Of a stretch of 64,000 nt of DNA, positions 13,793 through 41,647 are shown in pieces. The notes beneath the pieces are model-generated. The model saw only the letters and a list, made by a program, of their open reading frames with translations. It ran no database searches and had not been told where the DNA came from. The DNA comes from Treponemataceae bacterium (lineage in GTDB: Bacteria; Spirochaetota; Spirochaetia; Treponematales; Rectinemataceae), in NCBI GenBank assembly GCA_963677895.2, contig CAXXGJ010000006.1, positions 224,001 to 288,000 of the forward strand, in the 5' to 3' direction. The stretch's first letter is position 1; the number at the start of each line of letters is the position of its first letter. The position numbers and the translations under genes are program-made.

Positions 13793-15133
13793 ATGCGTCA
13801 GAAGCTGTTCTCGCTACAACTTCGAAATGGTACTTACTATGCTCAGTTGTTTAACCCCATTACACGGAAGTACTCTTCACCAAGATCAACCAGAACTTCT
13901 GATTATGGCGAAGCTAATGGCATAGCCTTAGATTGGCTTAAGAACGGCCTTCCTAATGCACGAAGAGGGCGCTATTCCGAAACCAGCAACTTTGACAGAA
14001 AACGACGAGAAATAGCCGATCTTCTATCGGTAGATGCTGCTATAGCTACCATTAAATCCGATCACTTCAGTCTTGATGATGGCCAGAGAATAGTTGAGGC
14101 TTTGAAAGAACGCGGTATCATCGAATCTGTGGTCCTTACGAGTTCATCCAGCCAGAAGCTGCTTATCCAGTACCTCAAGGATTTCTGGACTTACGAGACA
14201 TCTCCTTACGTTCATGAGAAGCATCTGTATGGGCAGCGTATTGGGAAGCGGCACGTCCTTGAATCCTTGCATCGCGTTCAATACTGGGAGAAGGCTTTTT
14301 CTTCAACCACTCTACTTAGTGAAGTATCAATTCATGACCTTAGAGACTTTACTCTCAAATTAGCCGAAGAAGGCCGGGCAGCAAATACCATCAATCAGAT
14401 CATGTTTGCCGGAACGACAGCGCTGAAATGGGCTGCTTCCCATGGGCAACTGACTGTTGATCCAACAAAAGGCTTAATGCAGTTCTCTGGACAGGCGATA
14501 AAGCGTGGGATTCTCACTGAAAAGGAAGCATCAAGTCTATTCCGTATAGCCTGGAAAGATGAACGGGCTAGGATAGGTAACCTTGTAGCGATGACGACTG
14601 GTTTGCGATCTGGTGAAGTACTAGCATTACAAATCGAGGATATTGGAGCAGATAGGCTTTTCATTCGTCATTCCTGGAGTGCGGCCGATGAGTTAAAGGG
14701 AACCAAGACAAACCGTGAACGGATAGTCCCCTTATTGCCGCAAGTTCGAACGGAATTGATAGCCTTAGCGAAAAAGAACCCACACCGAGGTCCGGAACAA
14801 AAGTTCATCTTCTATGGGCTGCTTCCTGGAAAGCCGATGGTTCCTAATATTCTCCTTGAGGGTTTATGTAGTGCCCTGATAGATATCGGGATGACGGAAG
14901 AAGCTCGGCAAGAACGTCACATCTGTTTCCACTCATGGCGACATTATTTCACAGCACATATGAATTCCATAGCAGATTCTAAAAAGGTTCAGAAGGCAAC
15001 AGGACATACAACGGATTCGGTGTTCGACGGTTATGCCGATCATGAGATAGCTTCTGATATGAAGGTGCTTTCAAAGACAGCAAAGAGTGTCTTCAAGAAA
15101 GTACTAGACTTTAAAATTGCAGTTGATCAATGA
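13793..15133 (+). CDS. Tyrosine recombinase / phage-type integrase
   Basis: TGLRSGE (R), KGTKT (K), FHSWRH (HxxR), TGH, DGY (Y); directly after the tRNA. Confidence 0.93.
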   Translation: MRQKLFSLQLRNGTYYAQLFNPITRKYSSPRSTRTSDYGEANGIALDWLKNGLPNARRGRYSETSNFDRKRREIADLLSVDAAIATIKSDHFSLDDGQRIVEALKERGIIESVVLTSSSSQKLLIQYLKDFWTYETSPYVHEKHLYGQRIGKRHVLESLHRVQYWEKAFSSTTLLSEVSIHDLRDFTLKLAEEGRAANTINQIMFAGTTALKWAASHGQLTVDPTKGLMQFSGQAIKRGILTEKEASSLFRIAWKDERARIGNLVAMTTGLRSGEVLALQIEDIGADRLFIRHSWSAADELKGTKTNRERIVPLLPQVRTELIALAKKNPHRGPEQKFIFYGLLPGKPMVPNILLEGLCSALIDIGMTEEARQERHICFHSWRHYFTAHMNSIADSKKVQKATGHTTDSVFDGYADHEIASDMKVLSKTAKSVFKKVLDFKIAVDQ

Positions 15134-15149
15134 CCTTTTGGTCGGCTGA

Positions 15150-15791
15150 TCATGAACCAGGGGAGCTTTGATTAGTAGACTTCCCTAATAATTTGTTTCG
15201 GTGCTTAGAGCGTTCTTGGCGTTTCTTTTCTTCATCACTAGCATTTTTCAGCCTCGATTTTGTAGCGCTATACGACTCAGGTGAAATATCCCGATTATTA
15301 ATGAGGAAACATGAGATGATAGCCGTACGAGCTGGTGGAATTTCTAGCTTCCCTTCTTTTTGTACCTCCTCTAGCCATAGGCATAGCTCTTTTAAAGTAC
15401 CATTGAATTTAAGTTTTCCAATATCGCTGTTTCTTGCAACCTTCTGAAAGACACTGCTCGCATTATTAAATTCAATGCTTACTGCCTCGCGGATTTCTTC
15501 TATAAAACTCGTTTGGGAAACAGCATAGTCCCTTAAGGAAGGCGGTTGATGCAGAGCTTTAGATAGTTTTTGAATAGTATATAAAATAGGTCGGATCTCT
15601 TCAGGTTCCTCCTCTATTATTGGATCAATACTAGGCTCGTTGTGCTGCAGTTCAAAAGGAGAAATTTGCCTCAGTTGGCCTTCAAGATATGCTAATCTTT
15701 CTTTTATTATATCCAAAGCCGTAGTGATCTGTAGTTTTTTGCTAAGAACATCCTTAAGCACAATATCAAGATCCATCATTTTCTTAAACAC
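15150..15791 (-). CDS. Hypothetical protein, possible regulator (weak RteC-like C-terminus), divergent from the xis operon
   Basis: 213-aa ORF; LKFNGTLKELCLWLEEVQKEGKLE loosely resembles RteC-type helices; repressor-like position. Confidence 0.5.
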   Translation of the reverse strand: MFKKMMDLDIVLKDVLSKKLQITTALDIIKERLAYLEGQLRQISPFELQHNEPSIDPIIEEEPEEIRPILYTIQKLSKALHQPPSLRDYAVSQTSFIEEIREAVSIEFNNASSVFQKVARNSDIGKLKFNGTLKELCLWLEEVQKEGKLEIPPARTAIISCFLINNRDISPESYSATKSRLKNASDEEKKRQERSKHRNKLLGKSTNQSSPGS

Positions 15792-15956
15792 CTCATTAAT
15801 CTCTTATCCCATAAGATATTGTATCTAAATATTAATGTTTATAAAGCCTTTGGCATTAATTGTTAATGTCCAAAGTTAACACGGATTTTACTCTAATGGT
15901 TTTATCAAAGCAATCATTTCAGCATACTTCCACTTGAGAAAAGCAAGGAGGTATCG

Positions 15957-16148
15957 ATGGCTGAGGAGTTGAAGGAAGGATTGTTCTCTGTACGACGAGC
16001 AGCTACCTATCTGGGAATCTCAGCGCAGACGTTATATAGGCGTCATCCCGAGATTCCTAGAATTCGGATAGGATCACTGATTCGTTTCCAGCGTACAGAC
16101 CTGGATCAATACATCGACAAGAATCGTTTTGTAAAAGCGGAACTCTAA
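15957..16148 (+). CDS. Excisionase/AlpA-like helix-turn-helix protein
   Basis: FSVRRAATYLGISAQTLYR...IPRIRIGSLIRF...DLDQYI; RBS AGGAGG. Confidence 0.85.
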   Translation: MAEELKEGLFSVRRAATYLGISAQTLYRRHPEIPRIRIGSLIRFQRTDLDQYIDKNRFVKAEL

Positions 16149-16167
16149 AAGGAAAGGAGCACATCAT

Positions 16168-16368
16168 ATGACAACTGAGGAGAGCTTGATGGCAAATAAG
16201 AATCTCGAGGTAGCCCTTGCGGAGGCACCTCAATATGGCTGGTTGAGCATAACGATCAAGTTTAGGGCAGGGAAAATCTGCCAGATAGAACGGCACAAAT
16301 TAGTTCAGACATTACCAAGTAAGGAAGTTCCTTACGGTATAAAACAGATTTCAAGGAGTATCAAATGA
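16168..16368 (+). CDS. Small hypothetical protein (DUF2292/YezD-like)
   Basis: YGWLSITIKFRAGKICQIE pattern; RBS AAGGAG; stop overlaps next start. Confidence 0.5.
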   Translation: MTTEESLMANKNLEVALAEAPQYGWLSITIKFRAGKICQIERHKLVQTLPSKEVPYGIKQISRSIK

Positions 16369-17280: not shown

Positions 17281-18321
17281 GTGATAGACAGTATTGGAAT
17301 TCATACGAAGATAAGTCTCGATGAAGTTGAGTCTTTTATTTATCACCTGCAAGAAGTTAAGAGAAGCCCACGTAAGATAATCGGAAAGATTAATGGTATT
17401 CCGATAAAGGTATTACAAAGTGGAGATATCTACTCAAACTTCAGTCTCCCTAAATACTTCCTAAGATTAACTGGTAAGGTATTAAACGTTACACTGATGC
17501 AAGAGTGTATTGAGAACATCTTGGATGATATACCCGCTTTTCATGATGGAAACCTGTATAGGATAGATATAGCTGATACATTTACGATGTCACAGCCGAT
17601 ACCAAATTATCTGGAGGTTCTTGGGCCAAAAAATAATTGTAGAAGAGTGGAAGATATCTTTGGGTCAAAACCATATAGATATGACTATGATCACCAGACT
17701 AAACACTATAGGTATAAAATACGATCTCTGGTTTTCTATGATAAAAACGCTGAAGAGTTAAGCCAACGTAAGGGGATGAAGCCTGAAAAATTCATTCACA
17801 ATCTATCTACCAACGAACTACGATACGAACTTCAATTCAAGGAAGGTGTCGCAAAACAATTATACAGTGATATAGAATATCAATTTACGCTAATGGATCT
17901 ATTACATCCTAGTCTGTTAAAATTGCTCGCTGATTATTGGAAGAATGAATTTGATGATATCTTGTTAATTCCTCAAAGCTGCTTTTGTCCAGTATTTGAT
18001 ACAACGATAGGTTTTCAAAATGCATTGGCAAGCTATGGCTATCAATGTGCTGGGCCAAATAATGTTGAGGCTTTAATAAAGAAAGCAACGAAAGAACGTA
18101 AGATAAGCAGTCAAAGTGGTTCTCGATTAAGAAGAAAATTACGTAAGAATTATAGGCAGTATTCTAAAGGGATACAATCAGATCCAATTTCTGAGCTGCA
18201 AAACGCTGTGAATACGTCATATAAGAAGTTCCTTACGCACATAGAGTCACTCCAAACCATACAGGCTGTTCAGCAGAATGAACTCAATAACCTAATTGAA
18301 GGAGATAACGATGAAAAATGA
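17281..18321 (+). CDS. Rolling-circle replication initiator/relaxase (phage gene II/X, Rep_trans-like)
   Basis: MIDSI start, NFSLPKY, YRIDIA, LVFYDK, LRYEL motifs characteristic of this family. Confidence 0.75.
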   Translation: MIDSIGIHTKISLDEVESFIYHLQEVKRSPRKIIGKINGIPIKVLQSGDIYSNFSLPKYFLRLTGKVLNVTLMQECIENILDDIPAFHDGNLYRIDIADTFTMSQPIPNYLEVLGPKNNCRRVEDIFGSKPYRYDYDHQTKHYRYKIRSLVFYDKNAEELSQRKGMKPEKFIHNLSTNELRYELQFKEGVAKQLYSDIEYQFTLMDLLHPSLLKLLADYWKNEFDDILLIPQSCFCPVFDTTIGFQNALASYGYQCAGPNNVEALIKKATKERKISSQSGSRLRRKLRKNYRQYSKGIQSDPISELQNAVNTSYKKFLTHIESLQTIQAVQQNELNNLIEGDNDEK

Positions 18322-19330
18322 AGCAGATTCTCTACAAAAACGATGCAAACTTTTTCAGAAAGTAGAAGAAACAGGTAACGTGGCTGAAGCCTGTCGGACT
18401 CTGGGCGTCAATAAATCATCCTACTACAATTTTAAAAGCCTATATGAGAAATATGGAGTTGAGGGGCTTAAGGGGAATAACAAAGAGGACTTGAAACATC
18501 TGTCATCAGAAAAGGCTAGAAAACGAAAGATGGACAAAATAGCTGAGTACGTTATTCAATATCCTGAAGTCGGTTGTCATAGGATTAGAAATTTTCTTCT
18601 TGAAGAGAAAGTTTCAATGTCTGCAAATGCTATTCAAAATGCACTTAAATACAGGGGATTAGGCTCAACTATTGATAGGATTCATGCCCTTGAGGAAAAG
18701 TTATACAAGGAAGATACAAACCCTACTGAGGAGCAGCGTGAACTTATAGAAGGAAAAGACCCATGTATGAAGGAGCGGGGATTAGTGTGTAAAGCCCCAG
18801 GCGAAGTTTTAGTTCAATGTATTTCTAGCTTGCATACACCTTCAACTCAGAAAGTATTATTCGCTCATTATGTAATTGATCGGTATGGATGCCTGGCCTT
18901 CCTAATATTCGACCGTTCGGAGTCAATTGATGTTTCTATCCGGCTGCTAAACGATAGTGTAATTCCTTACTACGATGAAATGGGAATCAAGATTCAAGAG
19001 ATTTTGCTTGAAGCCGAAGAAGAGCCTGATGCAGAAAACTTGTCAAGATATAGTAGTTTCGTGAAGAACTATGGAATAGCGCTTAGGTTCATAGAAAGCA
19101 CAGATGAAAACGCAGATGGGTTTGCCCAGCGTTTTGAGACCTGCTTTTGTGATAAGCTACTATCTGATCCAAAGACAAAGTTGTATCTAGAAGAGATTGA
19201 AGTCTTAAACGAGAAGTGCCAGATCTGGTTGAATCGGTATAATTCTAGTTCATATCATGGCTATAGGAATTTTGGGAACTCTCCATATGATGTAATCAAA
19301 GAATATCGAGCTGGCAGGCAACCAATCTAA
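18311..19330 (+). CDS. IS481-family transposase-derived protein, catalytic DDE residues apparently substituted
   Basis: N-terminal GNVAEACRTLGVNKSSYY..YEKYGVEGL HTH; rve-like PGEVLVQ, VIDRY, GFAQRF, WLNRYN..YHGYRNFGNSP. Confidence 0.75.
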   Translation: MKNEADSLQKRCKLFQKVEETGNVAEACRTLGVNKSSYYNFKSLYEKYGVEGLKGNNKEDLKHLSSEKARKRKMDKIAEYVIQYPEVGCHRIRNFLLEEKVSMSANAIQNALKYRGLGSTIDRIHALEEKLYKEDTNPTEEQRELIEGKDPCMKERGLVCKAPGEVLVQCISSLHTPSTQKVLFAHYVIDRYGCLAFLIFDRSESIDVSIRLLNDSVIPYYDEMGIKIQEILLEAEEEPDAENLSRYSSFVKNYGIALRFIESTDENADGFAQRFETCFCDKLLSDPKTKLYLEEIEVLNEKCQIWLNRYNSSSYHGYRNFGNSPYDVIKEYRAGRQPI

Positions 19331-19429: not shown

Positions 19430-19605
19430 CTCCTTACGGCAAGAAGAAGGGGCCTTACATACGGGATAAAGCGGGCTGGGAAGGGCTCGATCCAAGAGCT
19501 TGAAAAAAGGCTCCTTACGGTTTTCCCGTTACGCTCGAACTGCAGCTTCTATAAAAATGAAAAGCACCTCCTTACGGTTTTGTGCTTAAGTACAAAAGTG
19601 TACTT
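19430..19605 (+). repeat. Three CTCCTTACGG direct repeats plus hairpins in non-coding DNA (candidate origin or nick region)
   Basis: Copies at 19430, 19511, 19568 (last two extend to CTCCTTACGGTTTT); third lies in the loop of AAGCAC/GTGCTT; AAGTACA-AAAG-TGTACTT at 19588-19605. Confidence 0.65.
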
Positions 19606-19751: not shown

Positions 19752-22661
19752 GTGCCAGATGAGCTCAATCCATCCCAATGTCGTGCTGTTGAATCGACCG
19801 AAACTCCCCTCTTGGTTATCGCTGGGCCAGGTGCAGGAAAAACCAAGACTTTAGTTGAGCGAATAGTAGCCTTGGTCACAAAGAAGCAGGTGCCATCTGA
19901 GAGCATCTTTGTTGCGACGTTTACCGAGAAAGCAGCCAAAGAACTTGTAACTAGGGTTTCGAACAGGGCGATAGAGCTCGGTGTGGATATCAACCTCAGC
20001 GAAATGTATATTGGGACCCTTCATTCCATTTTCCTTAGAATTATCGAAGAATACCGGCCCTATACCTTGTTGATGAGGAACTATCGTGTTCTTGATGACT
20101 TCGAACAGCAATACCTTATCCACCGTTCCTTAGCAGCCTTTCAAGCAGTGAGCGATTATAACACCCTCATAAAGCCCATGCTAAACCGCTGGGAACAAGC
20201 AAAAGAGGTAGCGGGGCTCGTCAATAAAGCTGCGGAAGAAGATCTTGAACTTGACCGGCTTTCAGCATCTCCTTCTGCCGAACTGAAAGCGCTGGGGGCG
20301 ATCACCCAAGTATATCGTTCCAAGCTGCAGGAAGAAAACGCCTTAGATTTTTCGACAATCCAATCGACGATGCTCAAACTCATCACTGAACAGCCAAAGG
20401 TTCTTTGCGACCTTCAAACGAAGATTAGATACTTCATGATAGACGAATACCAGGATACGAATACGATCCAGGAAAAGATTCTCCTTATGCTAGCCGCTCC
20501 TGATAACCGCATCTGCGTTGTTGGTGACGACGACCAGAGCCTGTATCGGTTTCGCGGGGCGACCGTAAGGAATATCCTGGAATTCAGAAAGAATTTCGCC
20601 TCAGGAGAATGCGAGAAAGTTGAGCTTGTCACCAACTACCGATCACACCCCAAGATCATTGATTTCTACAACGAATGGATGGGATCTATTCCGTCGAAGG
20701 GTTCATGGACGGGAGAAACTGGAGAGAGTTTTCGCTATCCCAAATTGATACGACCGCGAGACACGACGTTCTCGGACTATGAATCTGTCGTAAAAGTTGC
20801 GGGGCTGGAGAGCCAAGAATCTTGGAATGAAGAGGTCCTTACGTTCTTGCGATCCTTGAGAGACAAGGGGATTCTTAAGGATAACAACCAAGTTGCATTT
20901 CTATTCCGATCAGTCAAGAACAGCAAGGCGATTGCGCTAGCGACTTTTCTTGAAGAAAATGGCGTCCCAGTCTTCTCTCCAAGATCCGCACTCTTTTTCC
21001 AGCGAGAAGAGATTCGACTGCTCATCGGAGCATATGTCTTTCTCTTTCCTCAGCTCATTGAAAAACACCTGAAATGGCAAGCTGACGCCGAACTTAAGGA
21101 ATGGGATTACTATCGAGAATGCCTTGAGCTCTTCACGAATGAATTGCGAGCGAATCCTGATCTGCATAAGGAGCTCAGGATTTGGTGTGCCAAGAAGGCG
21201 AAAGTCCATAGCTCCTTGAGCGAGAATACAAACTACTCTTTCGCCTCGCTCTTCTATGAACTCCTGGCCTTTCCCATGTTCTCACGTTATGTGGATACAG
21301 AACTGACCGGTGGGGTGTCGGACCTCCGTCCTGTCTATAATCTCTCGCTTTTCAGTCAACTCCTGGCCAAATTCGAGTTTCTTCACAATATAATCGTCCT
21401 TACACCCGAAAGCTTAACAAAAGATCTCCGCTCTCTTTTCAACCAATACCTCCGCTATCTCATTGATGGTGGTATCGCTGAGTATGAGGATTTCGATAGC
21501 TTCGCGCCTTCTGGATGTGTATCGTTCATGACCATTCATCAATCCAAAGGCTTGGAATTCCCGATCGTTTTAGTCGATTCGCTCAATAGTGTTCCAGTTA
21601 CTTCCATCGAAGCTATCGATACAGCGCTGGCGAATTTCTATCGGGAAGATGAGCCTTTTGAACCCCCGGAACGAATCAAATATTTCGACTTCTGGAGACT
21701 CTATTACACTGCGTTTTCCAGAGCACAGAATCTCCTTGTCCTTACTGGCGCTGAAAACCATTCAGGAAAGGGTATGTCTCGACTTCCATCACTCTACTTC
21801 GCACCACTTTATAACAAGCTTCCTGACTGGAGGGATGCGCGGCTCGACGAAAGTCATCTTCTCTTGGACACAGTAAAGCCAGCGAATATCAAACACGAAT
21901 ACTCATTTACATCTCATGTCTTGCTTTACGAGGATTGCCCTCTCCAATACAAGTTCTTCCGTGAACTGGAGTTCAGCCCTGTCCGGACAAACGCTATTCT
22001 ATTTGGTACTCTTGTGCATCAGACGATTGAAGATGCGCATAAGGCTGTTTTGGCTGGCAAGTCAGACATGATCACCGCAGACCAGATTCACTTTTGGCTC
22101 GAAGCGAACTACAAGAGCCTCTCCAAGTCGACAAGAACATACCTGGCGCAAGGGACTTTAGGAGCTGTTGAGGATCATGTTCTTCGCTACGTGGATCAGG
22201 CTAGCCGGGACTGGAGCGCAATCCAGGAAGCTGAACTCAGGGTTGCGCTGCTGAAAGAGAACTATATCCTTACGGGTTCAATAGACCTCATTCGCGGCAA
22301 AGAACAAAGCGTCGAGATCATCGACTTTAAAACTGAAAAGAAACCTGATATCAACAGCCCGGAAGGCCGTGAAAAACTCGACAGATATAGGCGTCAGCTT
22401 GAAATATACGCCCACATAGTTGAAGAACGATATGGTCATGAAGTGAGTCGGATGCATCTTTACTATACGGGGGCAAAAAACGAGAGTCCTTACATAAGCT
22501 ATGACTATGAACCGAGGAAGATCGACAGCACAATTACTGCCATTGGCGGTGTGGTAGGGAAGATTGAAGCGAAAAACTTCGATCATCACCATGTTGAAAA
22601 GTCAGAGCGACATTGCAGCAATTGTGACGTCAAACCCTTCTGCTGGAGGAATTTTATCTAA
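19752..22661 (+). CDS. UvrD/PcrA-like SF1 helicase fused to a C-terminal PD-(D/E)XK nuclease with 4-Cys (Fe-S-like) motif
   Basis: AGPGAGKT, IDEYQD, VGDDDQSLYRFRGA, MTIHQSKGLEF, YTAFSRA; C-term YEDCP..GSIDLI..IIDFKT..QLEIY..CSNC..FC. Confidence 0.9.
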   Translation: MPDELNPSQCRAVESTETPLLVIAGPGAGKTKTLVERIVALVTKKQVPSESIFVATFTEKAAKELVTRVSNRAIELGVDINLSEMYIGTLHSIFLRIIEEYRPYTLLMRNYRVLDDFEQQYLIHRSLAAFQAVSDYNTLIKPMLNRWEQAKEVAGLVNKAAEEDLELDRLSASPSAELKALGAITQVYRSKLQEENALDFSTIQSTMLKLITEQPKVLCDLQTKIRYFMIDEYQDTNTIQEKILLMLAAPDNRICVVGDDDQSLYRFRGATVRNILEFRKNFASGECEKVELVTNYRSHPKIIDFYNEWMGSIPSKGSWTGETGESFRYPKLIRPRDTTFSDYESVVKVAGLESQESWNEEVLTFLRSLRDKGILKDNNQVAFLFRSVKNSKAIALATFLEENGVPVFSPRSALFFQREEIRLLIGAYVFLFPQLIEKHLKWQADAELKEWDYYRECLELFTNELRANPDLHKELRIWCAKKAKVHSSLSENTNYSFASLFYELLAFPMFSRYVDTELTGGVSDLRPVYNLSLFSQLLAKFEFLHNIIVLTPESLTKDLRSLFNQYLRYLIDGGIAEYEDFDSFAPSGCVSFMTIHQSKGLEFPIVLVDSLNSVPVTSIEAIDTALANFYREDEPFEPPERIKYFDFWRLYYTAFSRAQNLLVLTGAENHSGKGMSRLPSLYFAPLYNKLPDWRDARLDESHLLLDTVKPANIKHEYSFTSHVLLYEDCPLQYKFFRELEFSPVRTNAILFGTLVHQTIEDAHKAVLAGKSDMITADQIHFWLEANYKSLSKSTRTYLAQGTLGAVEDHVLRYVDQASRDWSAIQEAELRVALLKENYILTGSIDLIRGKEQSVEIIDFKTEKKPDINSPEGREKLDRYRRQLEIYAHIVEERYGHEVSRMHLYYTGAKNESPYISYDYEPRKIDSTITAIGGVVGKIEAKNFDHHHVEKSERHCSNCDVKPFCWRNFI

Positions 22662-22723
22662 AATATATTGCTATTTTGTAAAAAATGTGCAAATATTGAG
22701 TATATTTCCTCTTGGAGGCTAAT

Positions 22724-24013
22724 ATGCTGCTAGAGTTTCGTGTTTCCAACTATCGATCTATCAGGGATGAGCAATGCCTCAGTCTCATGCCAGTTGCAGC
22801 TGATACAGCTCTCAAAGCAAGCAATGTTTATAAAACCAATAGTAGCTTAGTACCTGAAGTGTTGAATGGCTGTGCTGTTTATGGAGCCAATGCCAGCGGG
22901 AAATCCAACCTATTCCGAGCTATGGGATTCATGCAAGCGCTTGTTAAAGAGTCCGCGACGGCGGTGAAAGCCGGGCAAGCGCTCAATGTGCAGAGCTTCG
23001 CCTTTGACAAAACACATCCTTCTTCAGCTTCATCCTTTGAACTGACCGCTTTGATTGAGGGAGTACGCTATCAATATGGGTTCTCCCTGACAGCGAATCG
23101 AATACAAGACGAATGGCTATTGGTTTTTAAGTCCAGTAAGCCTCAGGAGTGGTTCTCCAGGAAATGGAACGAGAATACAAAGCAGCATGATTATGCTCCT
23201 TTCAGCGCCTATTTTTTGGGACAAAAGGATCTTTGGAAGCGTTCGACCAGAGAAAATGCCCTCTTCCTCTCCACTGCGGTACAGTTTAATAGTGAGCAGC
23301 TGAGACCTCTTTGGAATTGGATCGTCAATAGCTGGATCAATCTTCCTGCAATGGTACCTCTAAATATGAATATTACTCTTAACGCCATTGAACATGTGCA
23401 AGCTAAGAAGACCATTCTTGAGTTTCTGAACGCTGCTGATCTTGGGATTGCGGATATTTCAATTGTTAAGGCTCCTGGCAAGGAGGCGCTGTTTGCGATC
23501 GATGGGGCTACTGGAAATGCCTCGGTTTCTGAGAGCAAGGATACTGAAATACGAATGCCGCGATTCACCCATGTTGCCTCGCAGCAGACAGTAGCGCTGG
23601 ACTATCAAGATGAGTCTCAAGGAACTCAGCGCCTTTTTGAGTATGCTGGAATAATCCTCATGATCTTGCAGAATGGGATGACACTCGCAATTGACGAGAT
23701 TGAAAGTAGTATGCATCCCCTCCTGGTGCGGCATATTCTAAAGCTTTTCTTCTCTCCTGAGACGAATCCTCATGGTGCCCAGATCATATTCACGACACAC
23801 AGCACAACGCTCTTGGATAATGAGCTTCTCAGGCGGGACCAAATCTGGTTCACCGAGAAAGATGCAGACCTCGCTACCGCTTTGATTGCCTTCAGCGAGT
23901 TTAGTCCTCGCAAAAACGAGTCCTTTGAGAAGAACTATCTTGATGGACGATATGGCGCTATTCCTATACTCCGTACATTCCAGGCAAAGGAAGCGACGAA
24001 TGCACGAAAATAG
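22724..24013 (+). CDS. RloA / AAA_21 (AbiEii/AbiLi-like) ATPase
   Basis: EFRVSNYRSI, YGANASGKSN, ESQGTQRL, IDEIESSMHP, QIIFTTH, LRRDQIWF, YLDGRYGAIP. Confidence 0.88.
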   Translation: MLLEFRVSNYRSIRDEQCLSLMPVAADTALKASNVYKTNSSLVPEVLNGCAVYGANASGKSNLFRAMGFMQALVKESATAVKAGQALNVQSFAFDKTHPSSASSFELTALIEGVRYQYGFSLTANRIQDEWLLVFKSSKPQEWFSRKWNENTKQHDYAPFSAYFLGQKDLWKRSTRENALFLSTAVQFNSEQLRPLWNWIVNSWINLPAMVPLNMNITLNAIEHVQAKKTILEFLNAADLGIADISIVKAPGKEALFAIDGATGNASVSESKDTEIRMPRFTHVASQQTVALDYQDESQGTQRLFEYAGIILMILQNGMTLAIDEIESSMHPLLVRHILKLFFSPETNPHGAQIIFTTHSTTLLDNELLRRDQIWFTEKDADLATALIAFSEFSPRKNESFEKNYLDGRYGAIPILRTFQAKEATNARK

Positions 24014-24692
24014 CCCCAAAAAACGTCAAATCAGACGTCTAGAACGTAAAGCCGGAAAGAGGCCGCTATATCCTCGTATACTGATGGTCTGTGAAGGAAG
24101 TAAAACGGAAAAACTCTACTTCGATGATATTCGACAGCATTGGAGAATATCTTCGGCTGATTGGGAGGTGTTGCCTTCTGAACTTGGAACGGGACCTGAA
24201 AAGGTTGTAGAGTTTGCGGAGCAGAAGGCTCGTGAGGAGAAGAAATGGGACGAAGTCTATTGCATTTTTGATCGCGATGACCATGTTTATTACCAAACGG
24301 CAATACAAAAAGCGAAAAGCCTCGACGGCAAAATACGGCCCAATGATCCAATTGCAGCCAGTTCTCGATTTATGGCGATACCCTCCATACCTTGTTTTGA
24401 GTTGTGGTATCTCATTCACTTCGTATCGATCACCCAAGAGCTTCCCAGGGATAAAGTGTACACGCAACTAAAGATTAAAGTTCCTGAATATAGTAAAGGT
24501 GCTGCAGGCATGTTCGAAAGAACATTTTCGAGACTCTCCTTCGCGTGTACAAGTGCCGAAAATGAGAGGAAGCGAAAAGAACAGTCTGGTAATGATAACC
24601 CTTCAACTGACGTAGACATTCTTGTTAAGCGTCTACAGGAAATCGGGGCGATGAAAACAAAAGCGATGACAAAACAGCGGGGCGAAGAATGA
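24000..24692 (+). CDS. RloB family (TOPRIM-like) protein
   Basis: ILMVCEGSKTEKLYF, YCIFDRD, SIPCFELWYLIHF, NPST; coupled to RloA. Confidence 0.88.
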   Translation: MHENSPKKRQIRRLERKAGKRPLYPRILMVCEGSKTEKLYFDDIRQHWRISSADWEVLPSELGTGPEKVVEFAEQKAREEKKWDEVYCIFDRDDHVYYQTAIQKAKSLDGKIRPNDPIAASSRFMAIPSIPCFELWYLIHFVSITQELPRDKVYTQLKIKVPEYSKGAAGMFERTFSRLSFACTSAENERKRKEQSGNDNPSTDVDILVKRLQEIGAMKTKAMTKQRGEE

Positions 24693-26638: not shown

Positions 26639-26639
26639 A

Positions 26640-29240: not shown

Positions 29241-29293
29241 GCGAATAAACTCGATTTTGTAAAAATGATTAAAAGCCAATGCTAGGAGGGAAT

Positions 29294-32662: not shown

Positions 32663-33994
32663 ATGACTATTGGTATATTGATTTGCTTAGGGCTATTAGT
32701 TGTTCTTGTGGCAATTTTACTCATTCTTTTTCTTCGGTCAAAGCCAGCTTGTTACGATGAACGATTCGCTCAAATAGAGAGCGGCCAAGATAAAATTGAT
32801 CAAAGCGTTCGAAATGAAATCTCTCGAAACCGAGAAGAATCTGGTAAATTGCAGACTCAAAACCGAGAGGAACTCATCAAGACGCTTGAAACCTTCCGTT
32901 CAGGAATCCTTACGTCTATGGGACAAATTGCAGAGATGCAAAAAGCGCAACTCCAAACTTTTCAAGAACAACTAAGTACCTTAACGACAGGGAATGAGCA
33001 GCGTCTTGATAAGCTGAGAGAAACTGTTGACGAAAAACTTCGCCAAGTTCAGGCAGATAGTGCGGAGAAACTAGAAAAGATACGGGCTACTGTAGATGAG
33101 AAGCTTCACCAAACACTTGAAACACGCCTTGGGGAGTCTTTTAAGCTTGTTAGTGAACGACTTGAACTGGTACAAAAAGGTTTAGGAGAAATGCAGGGGT
33201 TGGCTACAGGAGTTGGAGATCTTAAGCGTGTCCTTACTAATGTTAAGACTCGAGGAACTTGGGGAGAAGTCGCGCTTAAATCAATTATCGATGATATCCT
33301 TACGCCTGCCCAGTATGAAGAAAATGCAATAACAAAAAAGGGTAGTCAGGAAAGAGTTGAGATAGCAATCAAGCTGCCCGGACGGGGAGAAGATGGAATT
33401 GAGAAAGTTCTTTTGCCGATTGACGCAAAGTTTCCTAAGGAAGATTACGAACGGCTGCTTACTGCTCAAGAAGCCGGCGATCTGGTTGGAAGCGATGAAG
33501 CATTAAAAGCCCTTGCTGCAAGGCTTAAGGGCTGTGCAAAAGATATCAGAGATAAGTATCTTAATCCTCCTGCAACCACAGACTTTGCAATTATGTTCCT
33601 GCCTTCTGAAAGTCTTTATGCTGAAAGTCTACGACGTCCAGGTTTGGTTGAATCGCTCCAGAAAGAATTTCGTATTATCGTAACAGGCCCAACAACCCTT
33701 GCCGCAATTGTGAATAGTCTCCAAATGGGTTTCAGAACTCTAGCTATTGAAAAACGCTCCAGCGAAGTCTGGCAAATTCTTGGGGCTGTAAAGACTGAAT
33801 TTGTTAAGTTTGGTGAAATTCTGGAGAAGACAAAGAAAAAGATACAAGAAGCAGGAGATACTATCGAGACAGCTTCAACTAAATCGAGAAAAATACAATC
33901 AAAGCTAAGAAGTGTAGAAGCTATGCCAGATATACCGATTGCCGGGCTTTTACCGACTGAAGCAAGCGATTTTCAAGATGATGCACAAGCCTAA
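32663..33994 (+). CDS. rmuC: DNA recombination protein RmuC
   Basis: N-terminal TM helix, coiled coil, NVKTRGTWGE, LPIDAKFP, TTDFAIMFLPSESLYAE, GPTTL. Confidence 0.9.
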   Translation: MTIGILICLGLLVVLVAILLILFLRSKPACYDERFAQIESGQDKIDQSVRNEISRNREESGKLQTQNREELIKTLETFRSGILTSMGQIAEMQKAQLQTFQEQLSTLTTGNEQRLDKLRETVDEKLRQVQADSAEKLEKIRATVDEKLHQTLETRLGESFKLVSERLELVQKGLGEMQGLATGVGDLKRVLTNVKTRGTWGEVALKSIIDDILTPAQYEENAITKKGSQERVEIAIKLPGRGEDGIEKVLLPIDAKFPKEDYERLLTAQEAGDLVGSDEALKALAARLKGCAKDIRDKYLNPPATTDFAIMFLPSESLYAESLRRPGLVESLQKEFRIIVTGPTTLAAIVNSLQMGFRTLAIEKRSSEVWQILGAVKTEFVKFGEILEKTKKKIQEAGDTIETASTKSRKIQSKLRSVEAMPDIPIAGLLPTEASDFQDDAQA

Positions 33995-34068: not shown

Positions 34069-35028
34069 ATGGAATCTGACCAGATTTCCCCTAGCAAAGA
34101 GCCCTCCTTCGACGTCGAGAGGGTCGTCCAGAAACTCCTCAGAGAGGCTCCCTCTCTCAAGGACCTCTCTCCTGATCAGCTCGACACCATCGCCAAGGCG
34201 GTCGTCCTCGAAGACCTGAAGGATGACCTCAAACATCGCCGAGACTTGGCCAGGGTCGATCTGACCAAACTCCAGGAAACCTTCCTTACACGGCAGAAGA
34301 GCGCCCATACAAAACGCGCATACGAAAGCGCACTTACCCTCCTTACGACCTGGGCACAGCGTGCCGGAGTCCATATTCTTGAGATGAAACCTCGTCATGC
34401 CGATGCCTTCATTGCGTCACTCGAAGGCTCTGCGTCCTCGATCCGGCTCAAGGTAGCGGTCGCCTCTTCGTTCTTTGCCTTCCTTACGAGGGAGACCGAG
34501 AATCGGGTCACGAATCCCTTCAGAGGAACGCGCGCCCGGCCAAAACGACAAACCTCCGCCCCGCTCGTCCCGACCGGCGAAGATGTGAAAAGCCTCCTTA
34601 CGGCTTCAGAAGGGAGCCTGCATGCCGCAATCCTCTGCATGGTCGAGCATGGTTTCAGAATTGGCGCACTTCCTACGCTCGAGATCTGGGGGGCGAGGTA
34701 TAAAGCGTACTCAAAAGGGAAGCAACTTGCAGGTGAACTCTCGAGCGACACCATAGAAGCTATAAAGACGGCCGGGCTCGATCCTCGTCATCCTTGGGCG
34801 GAGACGAATCCTGAAGCGATTCGGGATGCATTCCGGTACCTCGCTCGGACGCTGCACAAGAAGGGGCTCACCAAGGCTCCCTACTCGGTCCATGACCTCC
34901 GGCACTATTACGCGATCAAGCAGTACCAGCAGGATCATGATATCTATCGGCTCAAAGAGCTTCTTGGCCACAGCTCAATCCAGGTTACAGAAGTGTACTT
35001 ATTTGGATTACACAGCTATTTTATATAG
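34069..35028 (+). CDS. Second tyrosine recombinase (Xer/resolvase-like)
   Basis: GFRIG (R), HDLRH, LLGHSSIQVTEVY; higher GC than neighbours. Confidence 0.88.
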   Translation: MESDQISPSKEPSFDVERVVQKLLREAPSLKDLSPDQLDTIAKAVVLEDLKDDLKHRRDLARVDLTKLQETFLTRQKSAHTKRAYESALTLLTTWAQRAGVHILEMKPRHADAFIASLEGSASSIRLKVAVASSFFAFLTRETENRVTNPFRGTRARPKRQTSAPLVPTGEDVKSLLTASEGSLHAAILCMVEHGFRIGALPTLEIWGARYKAYSKGKQLAGELSSDTIEAIKTAGLDPRHPWAETNPEAIRDAFRYLARTLHKKGLTKAPYSVHDLRHYYAIKQYQQDHDIYRLKELLGHSSIQVTEVYLFGLHSYFI

Positions 35029-35295: not shown

Positions 35296-36210
35296 ATGTC
35301 ATCGCGCGCAATTGCAGGGGAGTATAACACTAACCAAGTAATTGCTATGACTTGGCTGTTTTCTTCTAAAGTAATAAAGGAATTGGCCCAAAAGGGGGAA
35401 TCCTCGACTTTTAGTCGACTTATAAAAGCAGCAGATCTTTGGCCAAGGCTTCCTAATTGCGAGAAGCTGAGAATTCGTGATGCCTATGATATCGTCTATA
35501 ATATCCTTAAAAATGGCGACAATCGAAGTGCATACATTTACAAAAATGTTCTCACTCGTAAGCGCTTTCTTGGAATTCACAGCCTTAAAACAGCATCATT
35601 ACTTACGGAATTTCGGGTGGGAAATTCAAAGGCTGATGTAGTAATCTTAAATGGTACCTCCACTGCTTATGAGATTAAATCTGAACGAGATACTTTCCTT
35701 CGGCTTGGTAGTCAAATTAGTTCTTACCTCAATGTCTTTGACAATGTCTATGTTATCTCAAGCGAAGATAACTGCGAGCGACTTATGTCTCTTCTTCCCC
35801 CTCAAGTTGGAATTATGGCATTAAATAAAAGACAGTGCATAAGTACTATCCGTGACGCTCTCTCAAATAAACGCAATATCTCGCCAAGTATTTTTTTTGA
35901 TTCCCTCACCAGAAAAGAAGCTGAAGAAGTATTGAAACTATATAGCATTACCATCCCCAAAGTCCCAAATACCAAGATTCGAAACGAACTCAAATCCCTA
36001 TTCATTGAACTCGGAGCTTCCCGTGTGCACGATGGTGCAGTAACTGTATTAAAGAAGAGCCGGAGCCTTAGCCCTCTGAGTGATTTTCTTTTCCTTCTTC
36101 CTGATTCATTGAAAGCAGCAGGCTTAAGCATATCAATGCCCCTTACCGCCAGAGAGCAGTTAATCGACACGCTTGACCTAAGCCTTAATACAGCATACAG
36201 ATGGAGTTAA
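35296..36210 (+). CDS. sce7726-family protein (PD-(D/E)XK-like)
   Basis: YIYKN, EFRVGNSKADVVILNGTSTAYEIKSERD, QISSY; adjacent to an sce7725-type gene. Confidence 0.8.
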   Translation: MSSRAIAGEYNTNQVIAMTWLFSSKVIKELAQKGESSTFSRLIKAADLWPRLPNCEKLRIRDAYDIVYNILKNGDNRSAYIYKNVLTRKRFLGIHSLKTASLLTEFRVGNSKADVVILNGTSTAYEIKSERDTFLRLGSQISSYLNVFDNVYVISSEDNCERLMSLLPPQVGIMALNKRQCISTIRDALSNKRNISPSIFFDSLTRKEAEEVLKLYSITIPKVPNTKIRNELKSLFIELGASRVHDGAVTVLKKSRSLSPLSDFLFLLPDSLKAAGLSISMPLTAREQLIDTLDLSLNTAYRWS

Positions 36211-36236
36211 CAAAGAATTAAATAAAAGAGGTTAAA

Positions 36237-37175
36237 ATGTATTACCCATATTTTCGAGGTAAACAATACGAGCTTGTGGCGATACGGGAGAATGCTCAAC
36301 TTATTGCAAATTCAAGCTTTATTCCGATTATTGAACCTGTAAAAGAAGCTTTCGGCCCTCTAGAACGTGCCTTGATGGAGCTCCACCAAAATAATGGGAG
36401 TGCCATCCTGATCATGAATCCACGACATGGGCAACTTGTTGAGGACCAATCAAGCTTAGAAGAATTATTAGCTCAAAAACTTCAGGCTTTTAGCACCCTA
36501 TCTATCGGGCTGATATTGTCACAAAACACAACACTTGCCGAAATCAGACGATTAATCTCGAAGTATTCATCGCATCCAATTACTCTTATTCATTATGGTT
36601 TCCCTGATGCAAAAAGCTTACTCTCCGCAACAACTGATCAACCGGCAGTAAAACAACATGTTTTTATTGAGGATAAATGTACAGATCTATATCCCCGTCA
36701 TTTTAAAAATTTAAAGAGAATTACTGTTCGCGACGGTTTTGAGCGAATGTCAAATAAAAATTACCCACCATTCGGAGCCTTCTCCGATCGCCATATCAAC
36801 TTCAACGAGAGAGGCTTTGATGGCTTTGGCGACTTTCTAATAGTTGGCGATGATTACTCAGAGACTGGTGGACCAGCATATGCGGTCGCAATACATCTCA
36901 CATATATCGACCCTGATCAAGATGATTCCATGTTTGTATTTCATTTTGTTTCTAAATCACAAGATACGCCGGCCGACCCGGCAGGAAAGTTTATAGAAGC
37001 GCTTGATAAACTATATTCAGAAGCAAAGCGTGCCAAGACTCCACTGTTACAGACAAAGGCTGTCAAGGAATTTCTCCATCTTCGAGAAATTGGACATTTC
37101 CCCGGACTTGGATATGTTAAAAAGCTTTCGATGCAACATCATCTCGAACTTATGGCTAACTTCTTCGCACGGTAG
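36237..37175 (+). CDS. sce7725-family protein
   Basis: MYYPYFRGKQYEL, PIIEP, GFGDFLIVGDDYSETGGPAYAVAIH, GYVKKLSMQHH. Confidence 0.82.
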   Translation: MYYPYFRGKQYELVAIRENAQLIANSSFIPIIEPVKEAFGPLERALMELHQNNGSAILIMNPRHGQLVEDQSSLEELLAQKLQAFSTLSIGLILSQNTTLAEIRRLISKYSSHPITLIHYGFPDAKSLLSATTDQPAVKQHVFIEDKCTDLYPRHFKNLKRITVRDGFERMSNKNYPPFGAFSDRHINFNERGFDGFGDFLIVGDDYSETGGPAYAVAIHLTYIDPDQDDSMFVFHFVSKSQDTPADPAGKFIEALDKLYSEAKRAKTPLLQTKAVKEFLHLREIGHFPGLGYVKKLSMQHHLELMANFFAR

Positions 37176-38209
37176 TGAGCATAATGGGTTGTTGCCCTAA
37201 CTGTTTTGATGATGACTATCTCAAAGATGAGGTTTTCCCTCGATATTCCACTAACCGTGGAGTATGTGCTTATTGCGGAGCAACTGATCAGGCTTTGATT
37301 GATCCACTTTTTTTTCGAGATAGCTTTGAAATACTACTAGGTATTTATTCACAACGCGAAGATGGTATCCGACTGATCGATCACCTTCGTCATGATTGGA
37401 ATCTGTTCCCTCAAGGGAACATTTCAGATCAAGCCACTGAAGAATTGCTTAACCGAATCTTTGACGACAACTCAATTTCAACGATGCGCTATCGACTTAA
37501 TGCTAATCCTACAACAAATTCACTCGATTCATGGCAGGACTTTAAGGAAGAGCTTTGTCACCGCAATCGATTCTTTCTGAAATCAGACCTAAACCTTGAT
37601 AGAATCAAGATTTTATTAGGGTTTCTTGAATGCAAACCATCGAGTATACCTGCACAGTTGTTTCGTGCAAGAATTCAAGAGGGAGACAGTCCGATCCCAT
37701 TAACACAGATGGGACCACCGCCACCCCGACTCGCCTCTCATGGACGCGCAAATCCTCCGGGAATCCCATATCTATATATGGCAAGTGATCCAAAAACAGC
37801 CATCTCCGAGCTTCGCCCGTACACAAGTGATATTACTACTGTCGCAGCACTTTCCCTAATTCCAGGTCTACTGTTTGTTGACCTCCGATTTCCCCGAAAG
37901 ACAGCCTCACCGTTCAAGTTTGGTGATGAAGACCAACTAATGTTATTACAGCAAGACCTTACATTTTTGGATCAGTTGGGAAATGAATTGACTCGACCTA
38001 TCAATCCTCGATCTGCCCATATAGAATACCTGCCAAGCCAGTATCTTTGCGAGTTTATAAAACACTGTGGATATGACGGGGTTATTTATCGTAGCTCTGT
38101 CGCTGCTGGTATAAACTACGCTTTATTCTATCCAGCAAATGCTTCACTTACAGAAATCACTACATATTCGGTGGATAGAGTATCTGTAGATATTTCTAAA
38201 GCTTCTTAA
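37175..38209 (+). CDS. RES-domain NAD+-degrading toxin-like protein with N-terminal CxxC...CxxC domain
   Basis: CPNC, CAYC; LFRAR, GRANPPGIPYLY, AISELRP, YLPSQY, YDGVIYRSS (R-E-S). Confidence 0.88.
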   Translation: MSIMGCCPNCFDDDYLKDEVFPRYSTNRGVCAYCGATDQALIDPLFFRDSFEILLGIYSQREDGIRLIDHLRHDWNLFPQGNISDQATEELLNRIFDDNSISTMRYRLNANPTTNSLDSWQDFKEELCHRNRFFLKSDLNLDRIKILLGFLECKPSSIPAQLFRARIQEGDSPIPLTQMGPPPPRLASHGRANPPGIPYLYMASDPKTAISELRPYTSDITTVAALSLIPGLLFVDLRFPRKTASPFKFGDEDQLMLLQQDLTFLDQLGNELTRPINPRSAHIEYLPSQYLCEFIKHCGYDGVIYRSSVAAGINYALFYPANASLTEITTYSVDRVSVDISKAS

Positions 38210-38242: not shown

Positions 38243-38516
38243 TATCGGGCATATAGAATCCTACTAGAGTGCCCTTCGCGAAAAGCTCTCCGACGTCAAG
38301 CGGGTGGCCCAGAAGCCTTTCAGGGGAACCTTCTCTGAAGGATCTCTCTACCGATCAGATCGAGGATCTGATGCTCGGTTTACGATAAGCAACACTACTT
38401 CGCAAACAAGTAGTACGAGCCAGATAATGAATTTATATCGCATTAAAGAACTTCTAGGGCATTGCAGCATTCAAGTTACAGAAACCTATCTTCGGGGAAT
38501 TGAAAGCTACCTTTAG
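38243..38516 (+). pseudogene. Internally deleted copy of the 34069-35028 recombinase gene
   Basis: 38243-38363 aligns with 34059-34184 (ATG changed to ATA); 38370-38516 aligns with about 34880-35028 (LYRIKELLGHCSIQVTETYL vs IYRLKELLGHSSIQVTEVYL). Confidence 0.85.
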
Positions 38517-38525
38517 TATAACCTC

Positions 38526-39866: not shown

Positions 39867-40073
39867 ATGAATAAACAAATCCAGGAGGTCTGCGAGAAGA
39901 TACGTCTCTTACGAAATCAGAAAGGTTTGACCATTCTAGAATTGGCGGAGAGAGCAGGTATTGCGCATAGCGCTGTTTATTACATTGAAAGCAAGAAGAA
40001 GGAACCGACTCTTTCAACATTGTTCAAACTCGCGGAAGCATTAGAGATTTCGATTGTTGAATTCTTCAGATAA
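39867..40073 (+). CDS. XRE-family HTH transcriptional regulator
   Basis: IRLLRNQKGLTILELAERAGI..YIES..KEPTLSTLFKLAEALEI. Confidence 0.9.
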   Translation: MNKQIQEVCEKIRLLRNQKGLTILELAERAGIAHSAVYYIESKKKEPTLSTLFKLAEALEISIVEFFR

Positions 40074-40229
40074 CTCTTCATTATAAACTGGTTGGAAGTT
40101 AGACTCTTTCGCCAGCAACCGTTCTCGCTTAGCTTAGCAAAAAATCTGATACTCCTTACGACCTAATACTTAGCCTAATAAAGCATTCAGGAAAGCACAT
40201 CATGGAGCTTATCTATATATGTCATGGTA

Positions 40230-40257
40230 TTGACAGTTCTTAAAAAATTCCCATAAT
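40230..40257 (+). promoter_or_regulatory. Sigma70-type promoter upstream of the ankyrin gene
   Basis: TTGACA-16 bp-CATAAT. Confidence 0.45.
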
Positions 40258-40385
40258 GTCGCCTGTTGAAAAATTACTTCCTGTAAATTACCTTACCCGA
40301 CTCCTGGCACGACAGATACCTCAATCCTGACTACAAGATAAGTGTATCTGCTGGCAAATCTTGTCTCACAAGAAAAGGAGTCAAT

Positions 40386-40898
40386 ATGTGCGACATATCT
40401 AATCCAAAGAACGAAGAAATCTGCATCGAAGCTGGTGCTGATATCAACACCAGAGATTGTGACGGAAGAACCCCTCTCCACTACGCTGCACGCAATCCTT
40501 ACAAAGAGGCGGCGGAGTCCCTTCTCTCAAACGGCGCTGATATAAACGCACGGGATAATATTGGTTGCACTCCGCTCATGATGGCAGCCGCTTTCAATTC
40601 CAACGCTGCGATAGCCGAGCTACTGCTCGAAAAGGGTGCGGATCTCTACGCGCAGGACAATCAGGGATGGAACGCGCTTGACTATGCCAGGCTGCTGAAT
40701 CGTAACCCGCTCATCCAGGACATTCTGATCGGAAGAGGGCTTTCCCATGCATTAAACCAGGAAATCTTCGACGTCTTCCCTGGCACACACTCGATTCCTT
40801 TCGAGCAGCCCTCTGATGCGGATCAAGCCGCACTAGATGCAATGATAGATTCTTTAGCAGAGGAATCCTGGGACTGGGAGGTAGAACAATGCAAATAG
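40386..40898 (+). CDS. Ankyrin repeat protein with acidic tail
   Basis: GRTPLHYAA, GADINARD..GCTPLMMAA, GADLYAQDNQGWNALDYA. Confidence 0.88.
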   Translation: MCDISNPKNEEICIEAGADINTRDCDGRTPLHYAARNPYKEAAESLLSNGADINARDNIGCTPLMMAAAFNSNAAIAELLLEKGADLYAQDNQGWNALDYARLLNRNPLIQDILIGRGLSHALNQEIFDVFPGTHSIPFEQPSDADQAALDAMIDSLAEESWDWEVEQCK

Positions 40899-41647
40899 AC
40901 CTTGGTTCGCCACCTTCCGATGGGAAGTGGCTGGAGGGACTCGCCGTAGAGTCCCTCCTTACGATGGAATTCCCGATACAGGCGATCCTGAAGGATTCTC
41001 TCTACTATCCTGCTTCAGGTTTCGACGGAGATCCTATAAAGCATCTACTCGGTACCTTCCTTTCTTTCATCTATGTCGATTACGCCCGATCGCATGAACT
41101 ACTCATGCTCGAGATCCAAGGGAGGGGGTTCAAAGGGTATCGGATGCTCGGTTGGAGAGCTGTAACGAAGCAAGAGCTCGTCCCACATGGCTGGACTCCT
41201 CGATATCCTACACGGAAGGATGGAGATCCTCGATCTGGATACCGGTGGGCGAAACCGCCTTTCTGTGACTGGTGTGTCTTTGAGCGATTACCGGAGATGC
41301 CCGAAGGGTACGGTCCTTACCGTTTCAGTCTGCTGTTCCTAGGCGGTGATGGCGTCGCCACGTTTCAAGCACTTTACCTGGGGAACCATGCCTTTCCCCG
41401 AGGAGTGGCGATCATCCAGGATGGATATGGCTTCGGGTTCGGTTGGACTCCATTCCGCGACAGGAACCGAATCTTCGCCAGATCCGTGATGGAGAATCCT
41501 TATGGGCAGCCAGAAGTACTCTTGAACGGTGGTTGGGGAAAAATAGGGGGTTATCAAGATCCTATATGGCCTGAATATGCAGAGGAATTGGGTTGCTTCA
41601 AGAAGACTATCGCTGGGTCATTCATAGCCTGGGGACTGTCAATGTAG
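40889..41647 (+). CDS. Hypothetical protein (possible Rossmann/SAM-like N-terminus)
   Basis: 252-aa ORF overlapping the ankyrin stop; SLYYPASGFD..FIYVDY. Confidence 0.6.
   Translation: MQIDLGSPPSDGKWLEGLAVESLLTMEFPIQAILKDSLYYPASGFDGDPIKHLLGTFLSFIYVDYARSHELLMLEIQGRGFKGYRMLGWRAVTKQELVPHGWTPRYPTRKDGDPRSGYRWAKPPFCDWCVFERLPEMPEGYGPYRFSLLFLGGDGVATFQALYLGNHAFPRGVAIIQDGYGFGFGWTPFRDRNRIFARSVMENPYGQPEVLLNGGWGKIGGYQDPIWPEYAEELGCFKKTIAGSFIAWGLSM

Follow-up and report, generated by a model that had tools for sequence, protein, structure and literature searches.

Most of the oriented words known from mobile elements are signals taken over from the host, Chi among them. In the lambdoid phages LLS and MD8, for example, Chi is distributed between the strands 20:3 (one per 1.86 kb) and 32:0, respectively, and is the commonest octamer of MD8 (PMC12315714). 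Short sites also direct other enzymes: one report (PMC10191066) describes TraB as binding repeated 8-bp motifs and FtsK as reading the FtsK-orienting polar sequences (KOPS), and another (PMC8718748) makes the NrS-1 primase-polymerase a precedent for an 8-nt primase site. Here we describe an oriented octamer, TCCTTACG, dispersed through a 31.4-kb tRNA-Met defence island of a Treponemataceae bacterium, within a 64-kb stretch of its genome (contig CAXXGJ010000006.1, positions 224,001 to 288,000) that is called the window below and sets the numbering of coordinates. The feature is real, family-wide and strand-polarised, and it is apparently selected: TCCTTAC(G>A,T) has sharp limits as a DNA word, and its enrichment is confined to a single strand in a family of tRNA-Met defence islands of one Treponematales family.

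Exact copies of TCCTTACG number 20 on the + strand and one on the - strand (CGTAAGGA at 20564); all lie within the island, and the rest of the window holds none. The + copies start at 14133, 14203, 16329, 18230, 19431, 19512, 19569, 20836, 22267, 24718, 26355, 27680, 28524, 32907, 33297, 34340, 34481, 34595, 40153 and 40956. A preliminary description of this DNA had listed these positions, the single opposite copy and the empty flanks, all of which proved exact, together with roughly ten TCCTTAC[A/C/T] variants on the + strand and an occurrence in all three codon phases as well as in non-coding DNA. We likewise find ten variants (TCCTTACA five times, TCCTTACT four times and TCCTTACC once) and all three phases (xLT at 11 sites, PY at 4, SLR at 1, the other 4 being intergenic). 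The island extends beyond the span given there (14133..40963): from attachment (att) site to att site it covers 13637-45122, at a G+C content of 43% vs ~58% in the flanks.

The word has narrow limits. The 7-mer TCCTTAC is split 30:4 (+:-) in the island, with A and T tolerated at position 8, and one-mismatch forms at positions 1-7 show no excess there (7 on +, 13 on -). Over 37 non-orthologous sites there is no flanking consensus and no information beyond the 8 bases, and no hairpin context was found at the sites, the intergenic ones being frequently extended to CTCCTTACGGTTT. The spacing is compatible with a uniform distribution (Kolmogorov-Smirnov p 0.19), with no clear clustering toward the island ends. 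The literature searched, with a coverage short on subscription journals and with supplements outside it, holds no description of TCCTTACG as a signal.

Markov models of orders 0-3 trained on the island predict 0.31-0.83 + copies (2.1 at order 4) as compared with the 20 observed, and 2000 synonymous-codon shuffles of the island genes gave a mean of 0.94 and a maximum of 5 as compared with 16 in genes. TCCTTACG is the top 8-mer of the island (20 copies; runner-up 9), with a strand bias of p = 2e-5, and among 271 25-kb windows of the genome a higher score was obtained only for a poly-C run and for the low-GC contig C39. The latter (46 kb, 33% G+C) carries several 8-mers that recur on one strand, with 16-28 copies per 25 kb, and are probably due to repeat proteins or contamination. 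Outside the island the genome holds 63 copies of TCCTTACG on both strands vs 59-69 expected at orders 3-6, so that the word is not over-represented there and the island is 70-fold denser. Hence two refuting conditions named in the preliminary description, that the enrichment vanishes under a codon- or dinucleotide-preserving null or that the motif is equally frequent genome-wide, did not materialise.

A more direct measure is saturation, defined as the share of positions where the encoded protein allows the word that actually carry it. On the + strand of the island genes 16 of the 35 permitted positions are filled, as against 1 of 20 on the opposite strand of the same genes (Fisher p 0.002), 5 of 226 in the host genes of contig C38 (Fisher p 4e-12) and 2 of 76 in other low-GC regions of the genome. 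On the Markov expectation, the synonymous shuffle and the counts of permitted positions we reject chance, codon or peptide effects. The earlier reading of the word as an oriented, element-specific cis-signal rather than a peptide motif is thus borne out by the shuffle, by the permitted positions and by the related islands considered next.

Eight loci from other genomes or metagenomes (given here by our handles) carry TCCTTACG 47:2 in favour of one strand, each having an expectation of 0.04-0.44:

G082: 11:0 in 11 kb
G005: 10:0 in 24 kb, an element from attL to attR on one contig
L036: 10:1 in 16 kb
G012: 4:0 in 3.4 kb
G083: 4:1 in 11 kb
G084: 2:0 in 3.7 kb
L037: 3:0
L038: 3:0

These loci were located via the integrase, a second tyrosine recombinase (int2), the replication initiator Rep, a 252-aa protein or the attR end, with the exception of G082:C82 (7 sites), which was located via the word itself and without which the sum is 40:2; the intervals of G012 and G084 were hand-set. 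Both enrichment and polarity, proposed earlier as something to be sought in homologous elements, therefore recur. In two tRNA-Met islands having no tblastn match to the tested island proteins, G057 (15 kb) and G019 (42 kb), the count is 0:0; L039 has no exact copy and three TCCTTACC, and what is left in G002 is a remnant, in which an integrase interrupted by an insertion sequence (IS) has two sites. The 15 regions around 35-45% identical integrases showed no other standout oriented word, and 11 small contigs with one or two sites carry host-like genes. The island is present in sequencing runs X6-X10; runs X1-X5, where the share of the word is small, were left out of any judgement on habitat.

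The G005 element lies between att copies at C2:119073 and 94209. It has in common with the window Xis (41% identity), int2 (88%), a minus-strand open reading frame (ORF), an HTH_3 gene, an ankyrin gene and a protein with a methyltransferase fold. It lacks both Rep and the UvrD-nuclease fusion of the window, in whose place are a RecA-like protein, its Walker A altered, and a 312-aa protein unrelated to them; neither the window Rep nor the ORF at 16365-17138 aligned to any of its backbone proteins. The RecA/UvsX-like gene (L016 2183-3391), whose Walker A motif is altered to GESGFGVT, belongs to a backbone headed by xis. Two further islands are of note for their content. L036, a word-bearing island, encodes a short prokaryotic Argonaute with a TIR partner as well as DrmD/DrmMI-like genes (10826-13643 and 46-5069, respectively). 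The G083 stretch contains none of the tested window proteins; there (L269 3828-10189, on G083:C36) a type I restriction-modification (R-M) cluster adjoins tRNA-Met, and four same-strand sites lie 2209, 2015 and 2137 bp apart.

The polarity of the word tracks the backbone of the island, made up of xis, an ATPase or Rep, and int2; it goes neither with the sense of the cargo genes nor with the chromosome. G082, G012, G083 and the window have the word on the strand of the tRNA, G005 and G084 on the opposite one, and in G005 it agrees with the xis - RecA-like - int2 backbone. In L036 three sites are antisense within the DrmD/DrmMI-like genes, with 3 of 6 permitted positions filled, whereas host genes have 4 of 211 (p 4e-4) and the minus-strand genes of L036, taken together, have 1 of 10 on their sense strand. 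One G005 site is likewise antisense, in the integrase. These antisense sites tie the word to a DNA strand and not to mRNA.

The word is also conserved at synonymous positions, as the preliminary description had suggested examining. Window sites are kept in G082 (9/9), G002 (2/2), G005 (5/5), L037 (3/3) and L036 (3/4), which makes 22 of 23 in five close relatives as compared with 0.13-0.77 for background 8-mers in the same relatives, the counts being indicative only as sites and related sequences were reused and are non-independent. Within int2 all 8 of 8 sites are kept vs 0.25-0.27 of phase- and protein-matched 8-mers (one G005 site, whose first residue differs, was excluded). Five further comparisons, at four places, found the word in the relative only and one or two changes off in the window, and the single - copy is lost in G082. 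Overall, the word is very probably kept by selection, and its polarity over tens of kb very probably means that the reader either tracks along DNA or acts on a single strand.

The features of the window that bear on this question are as follows:

13606..13679, + strand: tRNA-Met(CAT), whose last 43 bases (13637-13679) are the attL core
13793..15133, + strand: tRNA-targeting tyrosine integrase (int), with sites 14133 and 14203
14133..14140, + strand: TCCTTACG in int, xLT phase, kept in G082 and G002
14203..14210, + strand: TCCTTACG in int, PY phase, kept in G082 and G002
15957..16148, + strand: Xis/HTH_17 protein, the one related to the Xis of G005
16329..16336, + strand: TCCTTACG in a 66-aa ORF (16168-16368), kept in G082
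17281..18321, + strand: rolling-circle initiator (rep), G2P/Phage_CRI family, Rep_trans fold
18230..18237, + strand: TCCTTACG in rep, kept in G082
18296..19330, + strand: IS481-like HTH/DDE protein, divergent (72 bits vs a cut-off of 224)
19431..19576, + strand: intergenic cluster of three sites (19431, 19512, 19569), all kept in G082
19752..22661, + strand: UvrD helicase-PD-(D/E)XK nuclease fusion, with sites 20836 and 22267 (kept in G082) and variants at 21397 and 21739
20564..20571, - strand: the sole opposite-strand copy, not kept in G082
22712..24692, + strand: AbiL-like pair (AAA_21 and RloB), no site and zero protein-permitted positions
24689..29240, + strand: type III-like mod/res, with sites 24718, 26355, 27680 and 28524
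29279..32393, + strand: SIR2-HerA defence pair, with none of its 3 possible positions filled and one TCCTTACT variant
32663..33994, + strand: RmuC-family gene, with sites 32907 and 33297
34069..35028, + strand: int2, XerC/D-like, with sites 34340, 34481 and 34595 and a variant at 34283
35296..38209, + strand: sce7726-sce7725-RES cassette, no site (0 of 2 possible)
40153..40160, + strand: intergenic TCCTTACG 3' of the HTH_3 gene (39867-40073), kept in G005 in a 70%-identical stretch
40889..41647, + strand: 252-aa protein with a class I S-adenosylmethionine-methyltransferase-like fold, with site 40956
41904..44887, + strand: C5 methyltransferase and GHKL restriction-like gene, without a site at any of 3 possible positions
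44977..44984, + strand: variant TCCTTACA, ~100 bp inside attR
45080..45122, + strand: attR, a 43-bp identical direct repeat of the tRNA 3' end

The tRNA was the sole match of an Rfam scan. A third, degenerate att copy lies at 46950-46988, 1.9 kb past attR, and tandem att copies, seen in the window and also in G005, G019 and G084, indicate stacked islands. In the rolling-circle initiator Y153, K155 and E183 are invariant across 90 aligned homologues, and Foldseek matches it to RepD/RepDE (E 1e-8); an initiator of the Rep_trans fold was found in the window and in G082 only. The acidic catalytic residues of the IS481-like protein (18296-19330) look altered by eye. The three-site cluster lies directly 3' of its gene, and the DNA between the first two sites has diverged in G082; folding of 19380-19640, a candidate nick site or double-strand origin, was no better than that of shuffles (z -0.05). 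Near the other end, G012 has an exact TCCTTACG at a distance from its attR that matches the window variant at 44977. The fold assigned to the 252-aa protein derives from a confident model of middling similarity (best Z 8.0, root-mean-square deviation 4.2, 147 residues aligned); this family is widespread (207 homologues, no Pfam), and the ESM Atlas gave no usable match.

Defence cargo is dense over 19752-44887 (AbiL-like, type III-like R-M, SIR2-HerA, sce7726/7725-RES, and a C5 methyltransferase with its GHKL nuclease-like partner), and its genes differ in saturation. Filled positions amount to 2 of 3 in int, 1 of 1 in rep, 3 of 4 in int2, 2 of 2 in mod, 2 of 3 in res, 2 of 5 in uvrD and 2 of 5 in rmuC, and to 0 of 8 in the SIR2-HerA pair, the sce7726 cassette and the C5 methyltransferase pair together, which would therefore be recent arrivals. 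A duplicated 3' end of int2 (remnant 38304-38516) flanks the sce7726 cassette, which is absent from a strain in run X7 (joint 34953-38445) and from locus L037.

A host Chi or KOPS role of the word is unlikely. The replichore split of TCCTTACG is 31:25 in the host genome G000 (p 0.50; contig C12 is probably misoriented, which shifts one copy) and 30:18 in G001:C3 (p 0.11; skew switch near 1.2 Mb), at most a weak leading-strand tendency that falls short of significance (combined p 0.095). The top replichore-skewed octamer of G000 is not TCCTTACG but the KOPS-like GGGNAGGG (GGGAAGGG 217:81, GGGCAGGG 218:108), as is the case with proteobacterial KOPS. A genome-wide word was also sought and rejected: 41 genomes proved roughly balanced by strand and mostly below a reversed-pattern control, and 401 genomes of the order plus 401 of the phylum gave no dispersed genome-wide enrichment as judged by the pair pattern. 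The same 401 order and 401 phylum genomes, scanned for a donor rich in the word, returned only G000, G005, G082, G002, scattered low counts and tandem repeats; such pair scans detect only pairs within 400-500 bp, and G012 and G083 were missed by them. Two kinds of repeats came up in this connection. In several genomes of family f4, 23-24 bp tandem repeats (L045, L056, L057, L059) hold TCCTTACN, their ascertainment being likely since they were located by searching the word. In a distant spirochaete (G701:C5; L230-L233) perfect (TCCTTACG)n arrays of 17, 21, 9, 13 and 13 units lie at 139048, 234672, 1125004, 1589563 and 1598824, toward the 5' end of lipoprotein-like genes that are paralogous to one another; the arrays have the look of phase-variable repeats, and the identity of their unit to TCCTTACG is probably a coincidence.

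Rep and the UvrD-nuclease fusion, named in the preliminary description among the possible readers, are not supported as general ones: both are absent from the 10:0 G005 element, so that the reader probably acts in trans. In our judgement it is probably not a gene common to all islands, and would come from the host or from a helper element. No conjugation or capsid genes were found among the scanned island proteins (Pfam, PHROGs and NCBIfam, several ORFs being left without assignment), and a helper would therefore be needed for transfer. A motif-rich helper was found neither in G000 nor in five related assemblies nor among the viral loci listed. A viral pair scan returned at least 80 loci; of the 80 listed, the top six are tandem repeats or isolated clusters and 74 have 2-3 copies, and none with the extended pattern. 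Viral contigs gave no match for int2, the methyltransferase-like protein or the G005 312-aa family, Rep had no match in plasmids or phages, and int2 had only 25-41% matches in plasmids.

The explanation to which we commit ourselves, tentatively, is that priming takes place at the word on a single-stranded intermediate of replication or transfer. The excised island would enter a single-stranded state, through rolling-circle nicking by the Rep_trans protein in the present case and through mobilisation in trans in the Rep-less members; the word would then mark the start of complementary-strand priming about once per 1.5 kb, and cargo genes would gain sites with a longer stay in the island. Priming fits the even spacing, the encoded Rep and the lack of a chromosomal excess: a signal needed only on single-stranded intermediates should not be in excess on the chromosome, as is observed. 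Several points speak against it. No primase was found in the scan of the island proteins, and neither an excised circle nor a single-stranded form was observed (the joint check covered the right part of the island only). For the G005 element, devoid of Rep, the single-stranded stage is an assumption. Some sites lie only 60-140 bp from one another (19431-19569; int2), a distance over which additional priming would be of little gain, and in L038 and L039, whose int2 is ~80% identical, the three int2 sites are all lost (0/6), to which the non-independence of the conservation counts is to be added. The NrS-1 enzyme, moreover, is reported to use a shorter, more efficient site as well (PMC8718748). 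In a broader form, which we hold possible with the same reserve, these would be helper-dependent defence islands with a private oriented 8-letter code, unused by the chromosome and read by an undescribed priming or tracking enzyme, and selection would write this code into every long-resident cargo gene.

Clustered sites would be beneficial if the word were instead Chi-like, that is, if a helicase-nuclease (a host AddAB-type or a helper's enzyme) entering linear island DNA from one end were attenuated at the word, so that rolling-circle concatemers or incoming linear copies survive and recombine. The pattern is close to that of the Chi-rich phages LLS and MD8, the host has on C18 two adjacent large PDDEXK_1 genes (1304- and 922-aa frames, C18:446606-450897) that appear to be AddAB, and the weak leading-strand tendency would point the same way. 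We consider this the main rival, though less likely than priming, given that the chromosome is at expectation with a non-significant skew, that no dispersed enrichment appeared in the order and phylum genomes, that sites do not clearly cluster at the ends, and that the island's own helicase-nuclease is absent from the G005 element. No Chi-type signal is known to us for this spirochaete group. A dispersed, oriented and strict 8-mer with no flanking information could also serve to orient or load a KOPS- or TraB-like translocase, or the packaging machinery, of a helper that moves the island between cells, in line with the need for a helper; however, the host's own skewed octamer is GGGNAGGG, the scans for a motif-rich helper were negative, and the only FtsK-profile match in the island is the HerA of the SIR2-HerA pair, below cut-off, which makes this distinctly improbable.

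A binding or crossover site of an island protein (int2, Xis, HTH_3 or the methyltransferase-like protein) seems to us slightly less probable again. No gene has the sites more densely than int2, with 3-4 in 320 bp, and this gene is common to the window, G005, L036, L037 and L038, and the intergenic extension to CTCCTTACGGTTT would suit a binder. On the other hand, a single site is all that occurs in ten loci whose int2 is 42-51% identical, int2 was not found in the fragmented, word-bearing assemblies of G082, G083, G084 and G012, none of the 15 joints listed (2 more lie outside the listing) falls at a site, nor does the int2 cassette joint, and simple binding leaves the polarity over 30 kb unexplained. 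That the word serves as an R-M site or reflects a codon, peptide or mRNA effect is hardly credible. The islands are full of R-M genes, 16 of the 20 sites are sense-oriented in genes, and TCCTTACG resembles an anti-Shine-Dalgarno sequence; yet the systems differ between islands (type III-like, type I, DISARM-like), restriction predicts avoidance and not a 70-fold excess, and antisense and intergenic sites are equally enriched. The shuffle and the permitted-position counts largely refute this reading. For mechanisms outside those considered we see a small chance.

An island-specific word that occupies near half of the permitted coding positions and recurs across unrelated backbones and cargo predicts a DNA enzyme or helper in anaerobic spirochaetes, for which the word provides the exact substrate, and it marks members of the island family. 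If a private code is indeed written into resident cargo, word saturation would date the cargo and may rank cargo genes by residence time; if the word is instead a host Chi-type signal, it would be one invisible to chromosome statistics.

As to known systems, uptake sequences (DUS/USS) are dense, lie in genes at synonymous positions and are spread chromosome-wide in both orientations; the island word shares their density and synonymous placement, and unlike them is neither genome-wide nor in both orientations. KOPS and the sites of Streptomyces TraB are likewise oriented 8-mers for a directional motor, but the TraB repeats are confined to one plasmid locus, the host KOPS-like word differs, and no TraB-like gene was found. 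Elements with PICI-like gene order (phage-inducible chromosomal islands) and MOB_T elements have a Rep_trans rolling-circle protein, and integrative elements or satellites of this kind resemble the present island in their tRNA integrase, Xis, replication gene and defence cargo and in that no transfer genes were found; we know of no element-wide oriented word in any of them, and the backbones differ among the word-bearing islands. The strand-biased circularising elements (SE; intA-tfp-intB + srap; PMC10214605) are reported from Gammaproteobacteria, a range that does not include the present host, and a distance of 19 kb separates the two recombinases of the window. The NrS-1 site TTTGGTTA (PMC8718748) is similarly 8-nt and strand-specific with no hairpin required, with the difference that the phage encodes its reader while no primase was found in these islands. 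The Rec-less phages LLS and MD8 share with the island the commonest octamer of a mobile genome on one strand every ~1.5-2 kb; theirs is the known host RecBCD signal, which abounds on the chromosome and is crowded toward one end of the phage, whereas the word of the island is new, does not exceed chance on the chromosome and is evenly spread over a defence island. Overall, the word resembles an oriented Chi or primase site and may act as one, yet fails the host-enrichment tests for Chi and KOPS.

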